A stretch of 63,293 nt of DNA. Source: a virus. The notes below the pieces were generated by a model. That model did not search any database and was not told the origin of the DNA. It was given only the letters and a program-made list of their open reading frames with translations. Of the stretch, positions 46,768 through 56,303 are shown piece after piece. The stretch lies in the UHGV virus genome UHGV-0247968. One strand, 5' to 3'. Position 1 is the first letter of the stretch; each line of letters starts with the position of its first letter. A program made the translations under genes and the position numbers.

Positions 46768-47317
46768 TGGTGTCTCCTTTACACCCGCAACAAGTCATCA
46801 TGCATCGGGCACAGTCAGACTGGAAAGGGCATTGCTGTTTATGCTGCTCACGCTGCGCGGGCGTCATCTTTTTACGCAACTCGTTAATATCCGCTCCATC
46901 CATCATGTCGATGAATTTATACCCAGACTTCCAGCGAATGAACGCATCTACAGCTTTCATGCCGCCAGCGGAAAGAAAAATCGTCAAACCGAGGTCTGTC
47001 TCGGGCGTCCGTGTCACACCAAAAAACGGGAGGCATAATACTACGCCTACGGCCACGATAGCCATAAACGCACTGGATAAGAGGATATTGAAAAAAATAC
47101 TGCAAAAATCTCGATGCAGATAACTACGCTTCACGCCATGCCACCCCTGATACATAGCAATGACAAAAGCACCTGCGATGAGCGGCCACAACTCGACAAG
47201 CAGATTCAAATAGGTACTACTACGCCCTGTAATGGTGTCAGGAGAAACAGGAGGAATACTCATAAGTTGCGGACCGGACATAGTTTGTTTACCACGACAT
47301 GGCCATGACTTCGTCAT
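46718..47317 (-). CDS. holin-like membrane protein (3 TM helices) with a Cys-rich C-terminal tail
   Basis: Three hydrophobic helices. Immediately downstream of the endolysin. Alternative start at 47281. Confidence 0.35.
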   Translation of the reverse strand: MTKSWPCRGKQTMSGPQLMSIPPVSPDTITGRSSTYLNLLVELWPLIAGAFVIAMYQGWHGVKRSYLHRDFCSIFFNILLSSAFMAIVAVGVVLCLPFFGVTRTPETDLGLTIFLSAGGMKAVDAFIRWKSGYKFIDMMDGADINELRKKMTPAQREQHKQQCPFQSDCARCMMTCCGCKGDTNGDETYEAPHCSRRGE

Positions 47318-47786
47318 AGCTGGAACGACGGACCAGACCGCCTACACGCTTAAACTTCACAGCCCGTTCGTGTTCTCTCCCTCGAACGATGGCTACATGT
47401 ACCCACCCGGTAGGCAGGTTTTCTGCTATGAGTTCAGTGAAAGGCAGATTTTCCGCGATAAAAGCGAAGATGTCCCGCAGCGATACATCCGCCGACACCG
47501 GCTCGATGTCAGCAGCAGCCCCGGAGCGATGATGCGAAGTCTTCGAGGAACCGGGAATCGCTTTATTCAATGCGGAACTGCGATACCCGGAAGTTACCCG
47601 TATAGGACCAAACTTATCCCGAACAGGCTGCAAGATAGTCTGTGCCAAATACTCCATATTGTCCCAAACATCCGGGTCATCGGGAATATTCTGGATACCC
47701 TCGCGCACCGCAGTATCCGAGTGCAGGAGCTCTTCATAGGTGAAATTCGGGGCCCCGGGAATAGGTCCATGTCGCATAACGGGCAA
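47289..47786 (-). CDS. endolysin, peptidase M15 family (L-alanyl-D-glutamate / D-Ala-D-Ala peptidase-like)
   Basis: YEELLHS, SGYRS, HHRSGAAADI: the zinc-binding HxxxxxxD...H arrangement of M15 peptidases. Confidence 0.7.
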   Translation of the reverse strand: MPVMRHGPIPGAPNFTYEELLHSDTAVREGIQNIPDDPDVWDNMEYLAQTILQPVRDKFGPIRVTSGYRSSALNKAIPGSSKTSHHRSGAAADIEPVSADVSLRDIFAFIAENLPFTELIAENLPTGWVHVAIVRGREHERAVKFKRVGGLVRRSSYDEVMAMSW

Positions 47787-50699: not shown

Positions 50700-51287
50700 C
50701 TATTCCTCACTCGGGGAGGCCGAAGGGCCGTAAGCCTCGGCTCTCCAGGCTTCATAAATCGTGCGCTGCTCAGTCGTAAGGTCAGCCACGTCGAGTTTTT
50801 TGACGTACCGGTAAGCCGCCGGAGAGAAATCGACGATGGTCCCCGAACCGATAAAGTCTCTCCTGGCCCCGCATTCGTAGATGATATGGAACGGGTATAT
50901 GGCGTCACTATGGGAGAAATACTGCGCAATACCAAATCTCCCGCCATTCCAACCTGTCTCACCAGGAAGGAAGTCAGAGCAGAGCACCGGAGTCCCGACA
51001 ACGAACCACGGTTCGCGACTGCGAGTCCACCCCTCAACATCGGCAGCCGAGAACGTCGGCGCGAGGGCGACGGTGCCAACGAGCTCGGCAGTAAGGGACG
51101 TGTACGGGACGATTTCCTTGAACACCTCCCTGCTCCCGACCAGCAAGTAACCCACAGAGCCGTCAGGCTGCGTCACAGTCCTGGAGTAGAACCCGGGCTC
51201 CCAAAATTCCAAATTACCGTTACGAGCCAGAACACGGTCAAACGTCGTGTACTTCCAGTTCGCGTAGATGCTCACCTTCTTATCCAT
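50700..51287 (-). CDS. hypothetical protein
   Basis: ATG at 51287 after AGGGGG. Confidence 0.4.
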   Translation of the reverse strand: MDKKVSIYANWKYTTFDRVLARNGNLEFWEPGFYSRTVTQPDGSVGYLLVGSREVFKEIVPYTSLTAELVGTVALAPTFSAADVEGWTRSREPWFVVGTPVLCSDFLPGETGWNGGRFGIAQYFSHSDAIYPFHIIYECGARRDFIGSGTIVDFSPAAYRYVKKLDVADLTTEQRTIYEAWRAEAYGPSASPSEE

Positions 51288-51306
51288 TTTTCTACCCCCT
51301 ATCCAC

Positions 51307-51675
51307 TTACGCTCGCTTGTCCTTGTACCCAAGCAAAGTATCGAGCGACTCATGTACCACGATACCGTAGCCACGCAGCAAGTCCCGCATCGGAGGCCAC
51401 CAAACAGGCGTTGCGTCCGTATCAGACCGATGTATGAGAAAGACCTCATCGGCATCCGTTATACGGTTGAGCATGTCGGCCAGAAGCTCCAACTGCTTTT
51501 TGCGATTCTCGGTGCAAAGTTTTGTCGTATCTGCATTGATGAACAGTCTGTCCACCTTATGCCCGAGACTACCAAGAATAGTGGACAACAGACCGACCTT
51601 CTTTTCAAACTGCTGCCCGACAGTAGACAGCGTATAAAATTTGAAATCAAGCGGGACGATGATGAAGATTCTCAT
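51307..51675 (-). CDS. Rossmann-like protein resembling nucleoside 2-deoxyribosyltransferase / DUF4406 (paralog of 52309..52659)
   Basis: MRIFIIVPLD... LGHKV ... DADEVFLI ... YGIVVHE has the same topology as the 52309 gene product. Confidence 0.35.
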   Translation of the reverse strand: MRIFIIVPLDFKFYTLSTVGQQFEKKVGLLSTILGSLGHKVDRLFINADTTKLCTENRKKQLELLADMLNRITDADEVFLIHRSDTDATPVWWPPMRDLLRGYGIVVHESLDTLLGYKDKRA

Positions 51676-51836
51676 ATTTCTTCTACCTCGAAGTCGAAGT
51701 CCATACTGGAAGCTCTGTACTGCAAATATTTTTCGGCAGCGAAATCTTTAGCCATGTCTTCACTTTCGGCTTCAATTTCATACTCTTCTTCGTTGAGAAT
51801 AGAGTTCGGAGAAATGAGAACTTTGTACTTAGGCAT
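51672..51836 (-). CDS. small acidic protein (54 aa), paralog of 52662..52865
   Basis: Not in the ORF table. Overlaps the upstream membrane-protein gene by 8 nt (ATGCCTAA) and the downstream gene via ATGA. YEIEAESEDMAKDFAAEKY aligns with YIIEAENYEEAFAKARDM. Confidence 0.45.
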   Translation of the reverse strand: MPKYKVLISPNSILNEEEYEIEAESEDMAKDFAAEKYLQYRASSMDFDFEVEEI

Positions 51837-52308
51837 CAGTCTTTCGACTCCATCTTAAAAGATTCCCATATTTTACCGTCTCAGACACGACCATAGCGAC
51901 AACGAAAAGCGTTCCGGTCATAAGCACTGATATTACAGCAGACAAGAAAGTCTTGACGGAAAAACCAGGGTAGACGAAGAAATCATAACTGAAAGAAATA
52001 GCGAACCAAAAATTCCAAAGCATCAGCACGATGCTGAAGAAAAGCAGTCCGGTGAATGCGTCATATTCATCCACCCTGTCGAATGTCCAAGACATGACAT
52101 CATCCACCTTGTCATCAAACCTGTCACACAGGTCGAACATGACCTCAGCAATCTTGCGAAGACTGTCCGCCAAGAATTTAAGGTAAATGACGAAAATCAT
52201 GCCCAGTACACAGCACCACATCAACAGACTATGCACTACGCTGTTATTGCGTCCACAAGCAGCGAACACAGTAGAAAGCATATTTCTGATTGTAGCAGTA
52301 AATGTCAT
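51829..52308 (-). CDS. polytopic membrane protein (4-5 TM helices)
   Basis: Hydrophobic helices. GGGAGA RBS. AT-rich local composition. Confidence 0.5.
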   Translation of the reverse strand: MTFTATIRNMLSTVFAACGRNNSVVHSLLMWCCVLGMIFVIYLKFLADSLRKIAEVMFDLCDRFDDKVDDVMSWTFDRVDEYDAFTGLLFFSIVLMLWNFWFAISFSYDFFVYPGFSVKTFLSAVISVLMTGTLFVVAMVVSETVKYGNLLRWSRKTDA

Positions 52309-52659
52309 CTACATATTCTCCCGCAAACCCAGATAACAGAGACGACGCAAACCCTCTTCCCCATACAACACAGGGATACCGTAAGAACCGGCGCAATGGA
52401 TTTCCGCCTCACATCCCCTGGGCAGTTTCGTGTTCCGGTCACGCTCTCCGATATAGAGCAGTGCGTCGCAACGGGAGAGGATTTTAAGCGATTCCCCCAG
52501 GCACCACAGTGCCTCATTCACACTCTCGGGTGGAACGTCGATGTAACTGTCCTCGACCACATGCCCGACCTTTTCCAACAGCCTACAAGCAAGGGCCCGG
52601 TCCGCGTAGATTTCTTCCTTCGTCTTGCCCTTCATGGGCTGGCTGATGAACACACGCAT
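52309..52659 (-). CDS. DUF4406 / nucleoside 2-deoxyribosyltransferase-like (Rcl/DNPH1-type fold) protein
   Basis: MRVFISQPMKGK... GHVVE ... CDALLYIGERD ... RGCEAEIHCAGSYGIPVLYG fits the MKIYIAGPM...W..S.G...E...A...G.PV pattern. Confidence 0.45.
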   Translation of the reverse strand: MRVFISQPMKGKTKEEIYADRALACRLLEKVGHVVEDSYIDVPPESVNEALWCLGESLKILSRCDALLYIGERDRNTKLPRGCEAEIHCAGSYGIPVLYGEEGLRRLCYLGLRENM

Positions 52660-52661
52660 GG

Positions 52662-52865
52662 CTAGTACCTCTCCTGATATTCTCCATCGACAAAGTCAGC
52701 TTCACTGACACTACGCGCTTCCATGTCGATGTCATCGTCATCAAGACGCTTCCATTCGTCAGGCAGCATATCACGAGCCTTGGCGAATGCTTCCTCATAA
52801 TTTTCGGCCTCGATGATATATGTCTTCGGGCCTGCCATAACCTTGACTGCGAATTTCCAACTCAT
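52662..52865 (-). CDS. small acidic protein (67 aa)
   Basis: ATGA overlap with the upstream 2-TM protein gene. Paralogous to the 51672..51836 product. Confidence 0.45.
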   Translation of the reverse strand: MSWKFAVKVMAGPKTYIIEAENYEEAFAKARDMLPDEWKRLDDDDIDMEARSVSEADFVDGEYQERY

Positions 52866-53083
52866 CGTAACATACTCCTTACTAGCAGCAGCAACCTGTT
52901 CTCCAGGAGGTCGGAGATTATGACCACGAGCCATATCAGCATCAGGATGATGCGAACAGCGGCCCCAGCCTGGACCCACCCCGGTGCAGTGGACAGCGTA
53001 TACATCAGACCGAACACATCGGTCACGACACCGAAAACAACGAGAGCGACGGCAAAGGCCACTATCCAGTACACACGAGACAT
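52862..53083 (-). CDS. small membrane protein (2 TM helices)
   Basis: Two strongly hydrophobic segments. Confidence 0.5.
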   Translation of the reverse strand: MSRVYWIVAFAVALVVFGVVTDVFGLMYTLSTAPGWVQAGAAVRIILMLIWLVVIISDLLENRLLLLVRSMLR

Positions 53084-53086
53084 GGA

Positions 53087-53725
53087 TTAACTCTTCCCGG
53101 AAAGTGTTTCATCAGAAGAGGATTCCACCGTAGTGTCGACCCTGTTGAAAGGATACCGCCAGGGCAGCAGTTCGGGGTGGCCCAGAGCAGGGAAAATGGC
53201 GTCAAGGAAAAATTTCCACTCAGGGAGCTTGTGGTTATCGCGCTGCAAGATGATGTTCTTCAGGACAGCATAGTTCCCCGTCCAGATGCGACGCTGCAAC
53301 CAGCTCTGCGGGAGACAGGCGTTGAGCCTGCTGAAATCCCCGTCCTGCCGCAAATCTTCCAGAAAGTTGACATAGTAATCAGGAACATGCCTGGATTCGA
53401 AGCAATACTTCGTAACAGGCTTCTTCATCAGCGTGTGCATCGTGGACTCGGACTGGGCCACGGTGGACACCTTGTAGGTGTCCATCTGCTTCCACCAGTA
53501 CAGCGGCGCCGTGATGTCGAGGATGACACCAATCTGCCGCAGAAACTTGTCGTGTCCACCGGCGCCGTACAGCGCGAGCTGCGGCGCCAGTTCGCACAGC
53601 CTGGCCCATTCATCGTGCTGCTTGGCCTCTTCGGGCGTCGCATACCCGGACACCTTCCCATACGACAACCCGATACCGAACAGGGCCTCTTCGTACCCAA
53701 ACTCTTTCATCAGCCGAACACGCAT
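53087..53725 (-). CDS. ThyX-family (flavin-dependent thymidylate synthase-like) protein with non-canonical active-site motif
   Basis: GHDKFLRQIGVILDITAPLYWWKQM aligns with the ThyX [25 protein letters not shown] region. RIWTGNYAVLKNIILQRDNHKLPEW aligns with the ThyX C-terminal ...TGNYR.W..FI..R...HA..EI motif. Canonical RHR(x7)S is replaced by TYK(x7)E. Confidence 0.45.
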   Translation of the reverse strand: MRVRLMKEFGYEEALFGIGLSYGKVSGYATPEEAKQHDEWARLCELAPQLALYGAGGHDKFLRQIGVILDITAPLYWWKQMDTYKVSTVAQSESTMHTLMKKPVTKYCFESRHVPDYYVNFLEDLRQDGDFSRLNACLPQSWLQRRIWTGNYAVLKNIILQRDNHKLPEWKFFLDAIFPALGHPELLPWRYPFNRVDTTVESSSDETLSGKS

Positions 53726-53726
53726 A

Positions 53727-54023
53727 TCACATATCCTTCTTGAGCCACGCCGCCAGCGCAGCTTCTCCATCTGGTGTCAAAAGATAATATCCCCGCACAT
53801 TGCCGCGATGCCTCGGCAGCCCGATACGCATGAGGAACCCCTTGCCGCACAGCTTGTTGGCTATCCCGCAGGCACGCATGGCAATACCCTGACGATACCG
53901 CGCGGAAGGTTTCCTGGGCGGTAACGACGCGAATGCCCTGAGACCAAGCACATAGCCGAACGCATGACCCCTCGGCAGGTCGGCCACCGCCTTCAGGATG
54001 CGGTATTCCGCAAGTGTCAGCAT
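53727..54023 (-). CDS. winged-helix DNA-binding protein (MarR/PadR-like)
   Basis: YRILKAV...GYVLGL...RGYYLLTPDGEAAL. GGGAGG RBS. 1-nt TGATG coupling with the dUTPase gene. Confidence 0.45.
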   Translation of the reverse strand: MLTLAEYRILKAVADLPRGHAFGYVLGLRAFASLPPRKPSARYRQGIAMRACGIANKLCGKGFLMRIGLPRHRGNVRGYYLLTPDGEAALAAWLKKDM

Positions 54024-54639: not shown

Positions 54640-54830
54640 GGCTCACCAGGAACGCATGACTGATGCTCCACAGGAATGTATCCGGTCCCTGCAACACCCC
54701 GGGCGTATCACCCTAGTTTCACCCGGGACATCGTTCAGGCAGTTTTGGTTGTACCCCAGGAGCGCGCCATAGTCAACATTGACATCCTCCCCCGCCTAAA
54801 GTCGGGGGATTCCTATCGGTAGCGGCTCTA
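54640..54830 (-). ncRNA. putative TnpB-associated omegaRNA / right-end RNA
   Basis: By analogy with IS605-family elements the guide RNA overlaps the tnpB 3' end and extends to the right end. Strong secondary structure is visible (ggaggatgtc..., cccgggtgaaactagggtga...). Not verified. Confidence 0.3.
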
Positions 54831-56030
54831 ACGAGCCGCGCCACAGGCGGGTTCCTGCTTCGACGCGGGCGCTTGAGCCCTTCCCGCTCCACAGGCTGTC
54901 ACGGCCTGCCCGGCCGCCAGAATGTTCAACGCCGCATTATGGTCAGCGTTGCATTCAAATCCGCAGGCCGTACAGCTGAATTTCGCCTGCGTTGGTCTGT
55001 TTGCCCTGTCTACGCATCCGCAATGGCTGCATGTCTGACTGGTATACTGCGGTGGAATGACAATCAGCACACCTCCCAGCCATTTCAACTTGTACTCAAG
55101 CTGTCTGCGGAACTCATACCAGCCCTGATCCAGTATGGACTTGTTTAATCCTGCCTTTGCCCGCACATTTTTCCCCGGTGCTTCAAGCGTACCGGAAGCC
55201 GAACGCGACATATTCCGCACTTTCAAATCTTCAATCACGACAAGAGCGTGGTTTTTGCTGATTATCGTGGTTGTCTTGTGCAGAAAATCGTTGCGTACAT
55301 TGGCTATTGTACGGTGCAGGCGCTGGATTTTGGCTTTGAGCTTCTGCCAGTTGGCGGAAAACTTCACTCGTTTTGCCAACTTCCGCTGCAGCTTTGCCAG
55401 CTTCTTTTCATGCTTGCGGAAACTGTGCAGTGGTCTGATAGAAGAGCCATCGGAAAACGTCGCAAAACGGGCAATGCCCATATCTATGCCGACGACACTT
55501 TGCGAAGGATGCACAGGTTCTGGAACTTCCCGTTCCGTCTGAATGGAGACGTACCACTTTCCAGCGGAAAGAGAGACTGTCACCTGTTTCGGCGTTCCCT
55601 CTATTTTGCGGCTGTTGCGGTAGCGTATCCACCCGATTTTGGGAAGGAATATGCGGTCGTTCCTCTCGTCCAGCTTGAAACCCTGCGGATAGCGGAAGGC
55701 GTCATGAACCCCCTTTCTCTTGAAACGCGGGAAATTCGCACGCTTCGCAAAAAAGTTTTTGTAGGCCCTATCGAGATCTTTCAACGCTTGTTGCAGAATT
55801 TGAGAATGGGCTTCAGCAAGAAAAGATGTGTCGTTTTCCTTCTTCCAGTCCCGAAGGGCTTCGCAGAGCAAGGAAAACCCCAGACGCTTCCCTTCCTTTT
55901 CATAGGTCTCTTTTTCCAATGCAAGCGCCTTGTTCCAAAGGAAACGACAACAGCCGGCAAAGCGCCGCATGAGGCTTTCCTGCCCGGTTTTGGGGCGGAG
56001 CTGAAACTTATAGGCTTGCAATCTTTCCAT
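54828..56030 (-). CDS. tnpB: TnpB (IS605 OrfB-type RNA-guided nuclease)
   Basis: MERLQAYKFQLRPK start. RuvC-like motifs GIDMG, VVIEDLK, NADHNAALNI. Zinc finger CSHCGC...CTACGFEC. Confidence 0.85.
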   Translation of the reverse strand: MERLQAYKFQLRPKTGQESLMRRFAGCCRFLWNKALALEKETYEKEGKRLGFSLLCEALRDWKKENDTSFLAEAHSQILQQALKDLDRAYKNFFAKRANFPRFKRKGVHDAFRYPQGFKLDERNDRIFLPKIGWIRYRNSRKIEGTPKQVTVSLSAGKWYVSIQTEREVPEPVHPSQSVVGIDMGIARFATFSDGSSIRPLHSFRKHEKKLAKLQRKLAKRVKFSANWQKLKAKIQRLHRTIANVRNDFLHKTTTIISKNHALVVIEDLKVRNMSRSASGTLEAPGKNVRAKAGLNKSILDQGWYEFRRQLEYKLKWLGGVLIVIPPQYTSQTCSHCGCVDRANRPTQAKFSCTACGFECNADHNAALNILAAGQAVTACGAGRAQAPASKQEPACGAAR

Positions 56031-56303
56031 AGGTTCCAGTCTATCGCAGCACAAACGAAAAGGCAAAAATTCCAGTTAAGGTGCGCCTTATATCCCCGCC
56101 CTGAAGGGCGAGGCTTTACGGCGCGCTGGGTAAAATCTGGTGCCCCGCCCCATCAGCTCAACCGCAGGCGGTATGGGGCGGGGACTTTCAAGTTTGGCGT
56201 TCCAGGGTTGGCGTCCGGTCGCGTACCCCAGAAACACATCGGGTGTGCAGTCACCCGACAGCAAACTGTACAAAACGTCACGTCGTCTTGCTGTTGGCTG
56301 AAC

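Follow-up and report, generated by a model that had tools for sequence, protein, structure and literature searches.

We analyzed the virus genome UHGV-0247968, a stretch of 63,293 nucleotides (nt) that is called the window here, and focused on two small genes, ac1 and ac2, each of which encodes an acidic protein and overlaps the gene of a membrane protein (mem1 and mem2, respectively). A first-pass annotation had described mem1/ac1 and mem2/ac2 as a duplicated two-gene module. The observation is accurate for this one genome, and the coordinates, the overlaps (an ATGA shared by mem1 and ac1, and 8 nt shared by mem2 and ac2) and the acidity were confirmed in the sequence; the region is an ordinary, highly mosaic accessory run with two conserved orphan mini-proteins, and the membrane/acidic gene overlaps do not reflect a two-component system but dense packing of the genes and local deletions. 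With moderate confidence, we regard ac1 and ac2 as independent, individually exchangeable accessory genes that are probably ancient paralogs, with overlaps due to packing and deletion and with each protein possibly a stand-alone binder.

Gene order was compared in about 37 related loci, with the genes classified against the window proteins, and at least 16 gene orders were found. The mem1 gene always lay 3 nt downstream of g227; its product, 73 amino acids (aa) long in the window, has 63 aa in most relatives. One to three other genes usually parted mem1 from ac1 in the relatives: most carried a 146-aa gene between the two, some had, in addition, genes for a 97-aa and a Cys-rich 118-aa protein, and the distance from mem1 to ac1 in relatives with intervening genes was 443–1112 bp. 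The DNA alignment demonstrated that the window is without this intervening stretch, with the break at the mem1 stop codon (between GAGAACAGG and TAA in the relatives). Because the deletion took the stop codon, mem1 runs ten codons further, to a TGA that overlaps the ATG of ac1. It was thus a deletion that created the ATGA overlap seen in the window. The same junction, with a mem1 of 73 aa, was also present in L034 and L035 and thus marks a sublineage. Co-occurrence and steady adjacency of a membrane/acidic pair were not found across the relatives, as a membrane gene of any kind lay within 100 nt upstream of ac1 in 5 of about 23 contigs, a minority state.

The 146-aa gene, absent from the window at about 52881–52894, falls in the region 4555–5000 of L005 and 4245–5051 of L008. 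Its product carries an HEVLH motif, and a 30%-identical paralog is encoded further downstream in the relatives. In some relatives, the 3′ end of ac1 (…EADFVDGEYQ…) was repeated just 5′ of ac1 (L008, about 4990–5045; protein P0005), which suggests cassette shuffling via short shared sequences at gene boundaries.

The mem2 gene was found only with rcl1, as an rcl1–mem2 indel cassette between ac1 and ac2. Directly before ac2 lay mem2 in 12 loci, ac1 in 11 loci (with a TGATG overlap and the rcl1–mem2 insertion absent), a mem2 remnant fused to rcl1 in 3 loci, and a tRNA cluster or a soluble protein gene in 3 loci of a distant lineage; ac2 was present without mem2 in about 17 loci. In L029, L030, and L032, mem2 was deleted in frame and its last codons were fused to rcl1, with ac2 intact. 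The fused gene of L029 (4207–4581, ending …GKTDA) preserved the 8-nt overlap with ac2. The mem1 and mem2 proteins showed no similarity to each other (BLASTP E = 5.8; shuffle p = 0.65), and no DNA-level repeat was found in the region.

Seven small genes on the minus strand form an unbroken run, g227/mem1/ac1/rcl1/mem2/ac2/rcl2, with successive gaps of +3, −4 (ATGA), +2, 0, −8, and −4 (ATGA) nt when the ATG at 52865 is taken as the ac1 start. Since all junctions are equally tight, nothing marks out the membrane/acidic pairs, and other pairings of these genes are equally possible. The duplicated two-gene architecture is therefore not upheld: the two membrane proteins are unrelated, the DNA holds no repeat, and tight junctions are general in the run.

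Both acidic proteins are encoded by real genes under purifying selection. Homologs of ac1 formed 27 clusters (76%–97% identity, nearly all 67 aa) and those of ac2 about 60 clusters (54%–93% identity, nearly all 54 aa); metagenome assemblies were the source of all of them, and several of these assemblies carried a human-gut label. From 12–13 distinct nucleotide versions, the variable columns at codon positions 1/2/3 numbered 12/17/26 for ac1 and 22/18/44 for ac2, an excess at the third position, and the median pairwise ratio of nonsynonymous to synonymous substitution rates (dN/dS) was 0.45 and 0.18, respectively. The ac1 gene has its own ribosome-binding site, AAGGAG, 9 nt 5′ of the ATG. With conserved homologs of steady length and dN/dS below 1, the possibility raised in the first-pass annotation that these small open reading frames (ORFs) lack conservation falls away.

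The two genes also crossed phage lineages, a pattern typical of mobile accessory genes. Between the window and the divergent phage L004, ac1 was the best-conserved gene (76% identity vs. 31%–52% for the others), and the only gene shared with L011 and L033 was the ac2-like gene. In the distant lineage of L011, L018, and L033, this gene (54%–63% identity) followed a four-tRNA cluster or the gene of a soluble 73-aa protein, and was itself followed by a gene for a zinc-ribbon protein. The tRNA cluster, directly upstream of the ac2-like gene, consists of consecutive genes for tRNA-Thr, -Ser, -Pro, and -Ala (L011, 4572–4933; L033, 2357–2718). The phage group is one of about 62 kb from gut metagenomes, possibly with Desulfovibrionaceae hosts; the sole part of the region that matched a deposited phage was g227, with a weak DNA match to Desulfovibrio phage ProddE (71% over 144 nt).

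The first-pass annotation called the two acidic proteins recognizably paralogous, and sequence comparison supports this only weakly. BLASTP gave no match between them, a Smith–Waterman shuffle test gave p = 0.036, and hhalign, over 14 columns around a shared motif, gave P values of 0.007 and 0.004 and a probability of 5%–8%. The motif, Y-x-[IV]-E-A-E, a pattern picked after the fact, has two occurrences when the 63-kb window is translated in all six frames, one in ac1 and one in ac2, against 0.07 expected. AlphaFold2 modeling of each protein alone predicted one common strand–strand–helix–strand order. In the ac1 model (predicted local distance difference test score, pLDDT, 73.8), the strands span residues 3–11, 14–20, and 47–54 and the helix residues 23–33; in the ac2 model (pLDDT 86.7), the strands span 3–10, 17–22, and 47–53 and the helix 26–39. 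In each model, the motif is placed where strand 2 ends. Both models matched the same PDB folds, eL20/LX and PurS, and the predicted three-stranded sheet with one helix, in beta-beta-alpha-beta order, could be superposed on members of that fold. When the ac2 profile was widened with the relatives of 54%–63% identity and searched again, the family became slightly larger and ac1 was never reached. Distant paralogy of ac1 and ac2, as suggested by the predicted common fold and the motif, is likely but unproven.

Searches with ac1, ac2, mem1, and mem2 against Pfam, PHROGs, NCBIfam, and PADLOC returned nothing informative; the acidic proteins gave weak matches only, to PHROGs without known function, in agreement with the earlier remark that the family was not recognized. 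The ac1 profile, run against 1.84 billion representatives, gave four matches, one spurious (a coiled-coil repeat protein) and the rest from its own family, and a scan for ac2 in 185,579 reference genomes gave no prophage copy. The family is an orphan confined to gut-metagenome phages.

Likeness to known proteins was found at the level of predicted structure. The models of ac1 and ac2 share their beta-beta-alpha-beta fold with the N-terminal domain of eL20/LX (L18ae) and with PurS/PaaB, without sequence similarity (9%–20% identity when structurally aligned, and no profile matches); with an isoelectric point (pI) of about 4 and an unrelated genomic context, ac1 and ac2 differ from eL20, a basic rRNA-binding protein. 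They may also resemble T7 Gp2 and the small anti-CRISPRs AcrIE2 and AcrIIA15 (C-terminal domain), with modest scores, and no Pfam, PHROG, or PDB sequence match placed them in the Gp2 family. T7 Gp2, a small acidic protein, inhibits host RNA polymerase: it binds the beta′ jaw and blocks transcription. In BFVD, many uncharacterized phage proteins of 50–60 aa share the predicted fold (template modeling score, 0.6–0.8), and PDB entry 9lkj_A (“Phage protein,” from a Streptococcus prophage) gave a borderline match (E = 0.057), with the motif YKVEAKNRREAFKKAREE against YIIEAENYEEAFAKARDM in ac1. The 9lkj fragment matches Streptococcus phages, and no paper that mentions this entry was found. All E-values in the BFVD and 9lkj comparisons were above 0.01, and, as these proteins have no known function, the likeness shows no more than the wide occurrence of this fold among phages.

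In the reading that we favor, ac1 and ac2 would each encode a single tiny acidic beta-beta-alpha-beta domain. The two genes are situated downstream of the nucleotide-metabolism genes, in a run of small genes that is closely packed and recombines heavily. We infer, at low certainty, that during infection each acidic protein may work singly, as a small factor that binds another protein and modulates it, most likely by inhibition; the target would be a host protein or possibly one of the phage. Many small acidic early and middle phage proteins bind and modulate partner proteins. A bolder proposal, which we consider quite unlikely, is that ac1 and ac2 are the first members of a new family of host-interference proteins, very small, acidic and of beta-beta-alpha-beta fold, inhibitors of a Gp2-like or anti-defence-like kind, passed horizontally among otherwise unrelated gut phages of sulfate-reducing or Desulfovibrionaceae hosts; if true, such exchange would explain why these are the best-conserved or the only genes shared between divergent phages. 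The two genes are reasonable, unremarkable candidates for host-takeover or counter-defence screens, and Desulfovibrionaceae-like gut bacteria are a host group with little-studied phage biology.

Several observations count against independent, stand-alone genes, among them some on the Rcl-like genes interleaved with the pairs, as the first-pass annotation had correctly placed them. The spacing from ac1 to rcl1 was +2 nt in 13 of the 13 loci with both, the ATGA overlap (−4) of ac2 and rcl2 was kept in all of the roughly 25 loci with both, and the ac1–rcl1 pair recurred, with different flanks, in the divergent phage L004; such constant junctions could reflect a functional link with the enzymes. 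The kinship of ac1 and ac2 was moreover not significant by sequence, and their predicted common fold could be convergent. L004 also carries a 2-transmembrane ORF directly upstream of ac1 and overlapping it. This ORF was rejected as a mem1 homolog; it is unrelated, and L004 and the window are homologous at the DNA level precisely from the ATG of ac1 onward. Because small transmembrane ORFs are common in such regions, the adjacency was treated as coincidence, and it is left as a small residual support for a membrane association.

The main rival to independent genes is that the duplicated unit consists of a small acidic beta-beta-alpha-beta protein and a downstream DUF4406-like enzyme, with the acidic protein as an accessory or regulatory subunit; we consider this possible but unlikely. 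PurS and PaaB, small adaptor subunits of larger enzyme complexes, would be the analogy. All seven sequences formed by rcl1 and its six homologs matched DUF4406 (PF14359; best E = 1.6e-6), and the window rcl1 itself did so at E = 0.0024 and 18.7 bits, below the Pfam gathering score of 22 bits; rcl1 also matched phrog_355 (nucleoside 2-deoxyribosyltransferase) at 1.3e-12. No family matched rcl2, which is tied to DUF4406 only via rcl1: BLASTP gave no match between the two, and hhalign gave P = 1.5e-4 over 72 columns with a probability of 52%. Both components are thus weakly similar between the pairs, and together with the constant junctions this makes an ancient duplication of an acidic plus Rcl-like unit conceivable. 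The partners nevertheless separate: at least 11 contigs had ac1 but no rcl1, 7 contigs had rcl1 but no ac1, and L007 had rcl2 but no ac2; ac1 and ac2 persisted together without an intact rcl gene in L005, L006, L013, L014, and L016; and the ac2-like gene of L011, L018, and L033 has no rcl neighbor. A small acidic upstream partner was not general for DUF4406-like genes elsewhere, since 13 distant ones in other viral contigs had heterogeneous upstream neighbors, and no functional work on DUF4406 was found in the literature.

Comparative gene order largely refutes the original proposal that a membrane protein and a coupled acidic protein form a duplicated module that would serve in superinfection exclusion, abortive infection, or anti-defence; we rate that proposal as very improbable. 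The overlaps are literally present in the window, the mem1/ac1 junction recurs in L034 and L035, the unrelated ORF of L004 overlaps ac1, and mem2 was never seen without ac2 directly downstream. Against this stand the lack of kinship between mem1 and mem2, the binding of mem1 to g227 at a distance from ac1, the origin of the mem1/ac1 overlap in a deletion, and the frequent presence of ac2 without mem2, including the loss of mem2 from loci that retained ac2. PADLOC gave no matches at E ≤ 1 for all eight proteins searched. DNA mimics of the Ocr/ArdA type carry surface carboxylates that imitate the DNA backbone on an elongated scaffold; with no match to an anti-phage defence model, the low pI is the sole basis for suggesting that ac1 and ac2 may be DNA mimics or serve in superinfection exclusion or abortive infection. 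Minor virion or decoration proteins are a further analogy, as similar small beta-beta-alpha-beta proteins sit at the portal vertices of P74-26 and crAss001, but ac1 and ac2 lie among nucleotide-metabolism and accessory genes outside the structural module, are gained and lost between close relatives, and match the virion-protein fold no better than they match many unrelated proteins, so that this role seems extremely unlikely. The practical value of these results is mostly corrective: when start and stop codons overlap in a single phage genome, this is no evidence that the two genes work as a pair, as a comparison with relatives can quickly show.

Features of the seven-gene run in the window, in order of transcription, and the site of the deletion
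Feature	Position	Strand	Description
g227	53087–53770	−	Conserved 227-aa protein; phrog_6721 (E = 2.3e-32); adjoins dUTPase
mem1	52862–53083	−	73 aa; two hydrophobic segments (hydropathy)
ac1	52662–52865	−	67 aa; pI 4.27; predicted beta-beta-alpha-beta core, DDDD loop, acidic tail
rcl1	52309–52659	−	116 aa; DUF4406-like/nucleoside 2-deoxyribosyltransferase-like
mem2	51829–52308	−	159 aa; three hydrophobic segments (Kyte–Doolittle); acidic loop
ac2	51672–51836	−	54 aa; pI 4.06; beta-beta-alpha-beta model, pLDDT 86.7
rcl2	51307–51675	−	122 aa; without family match
Deletion junction	52881–52894	−	DNA alignment with L005, L007, and L008; site of the 146-aa gene in relatives

The transmembrane counts of the first-pass annotation were right for mem1 (two segments) and too high for mem2, where four to five had been given and a Kyte–Doolittle plot shows three clear ones. 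The run occupies, as had been described, an accessory site between nucleotide-metabolism and lysis genes: upstream lie the genes for a dUTPase and an Rv2179c-like exonuclease, and downstream those for a DUF6948 protein and then a Peptidase_M15_3 endolysin (47289–47786). Neither promoter and terminator scans nor Rfam searches yielded anything beyond chance in the region. Among the loci examined, only the window and L001 had a 251-aa ORF (50700–51455, minus strand) between rcl2 and the next conserved gene; it is without a family match and represents another indel of the mosaic region. In the window, the dUTPase and exonuclease genes are separated by a TnpB-like ORF of 412 aa (54828–56066, minus strand) that matches OrfB_IS605 (6.6e-31), a Cas12f1-like TNB domain (8e-25), and HTH_OrfB_IS605. 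As L001, L002, and L021 are without this gene at the same site, it looks like a recent insertion of the IS200/IS605 type.

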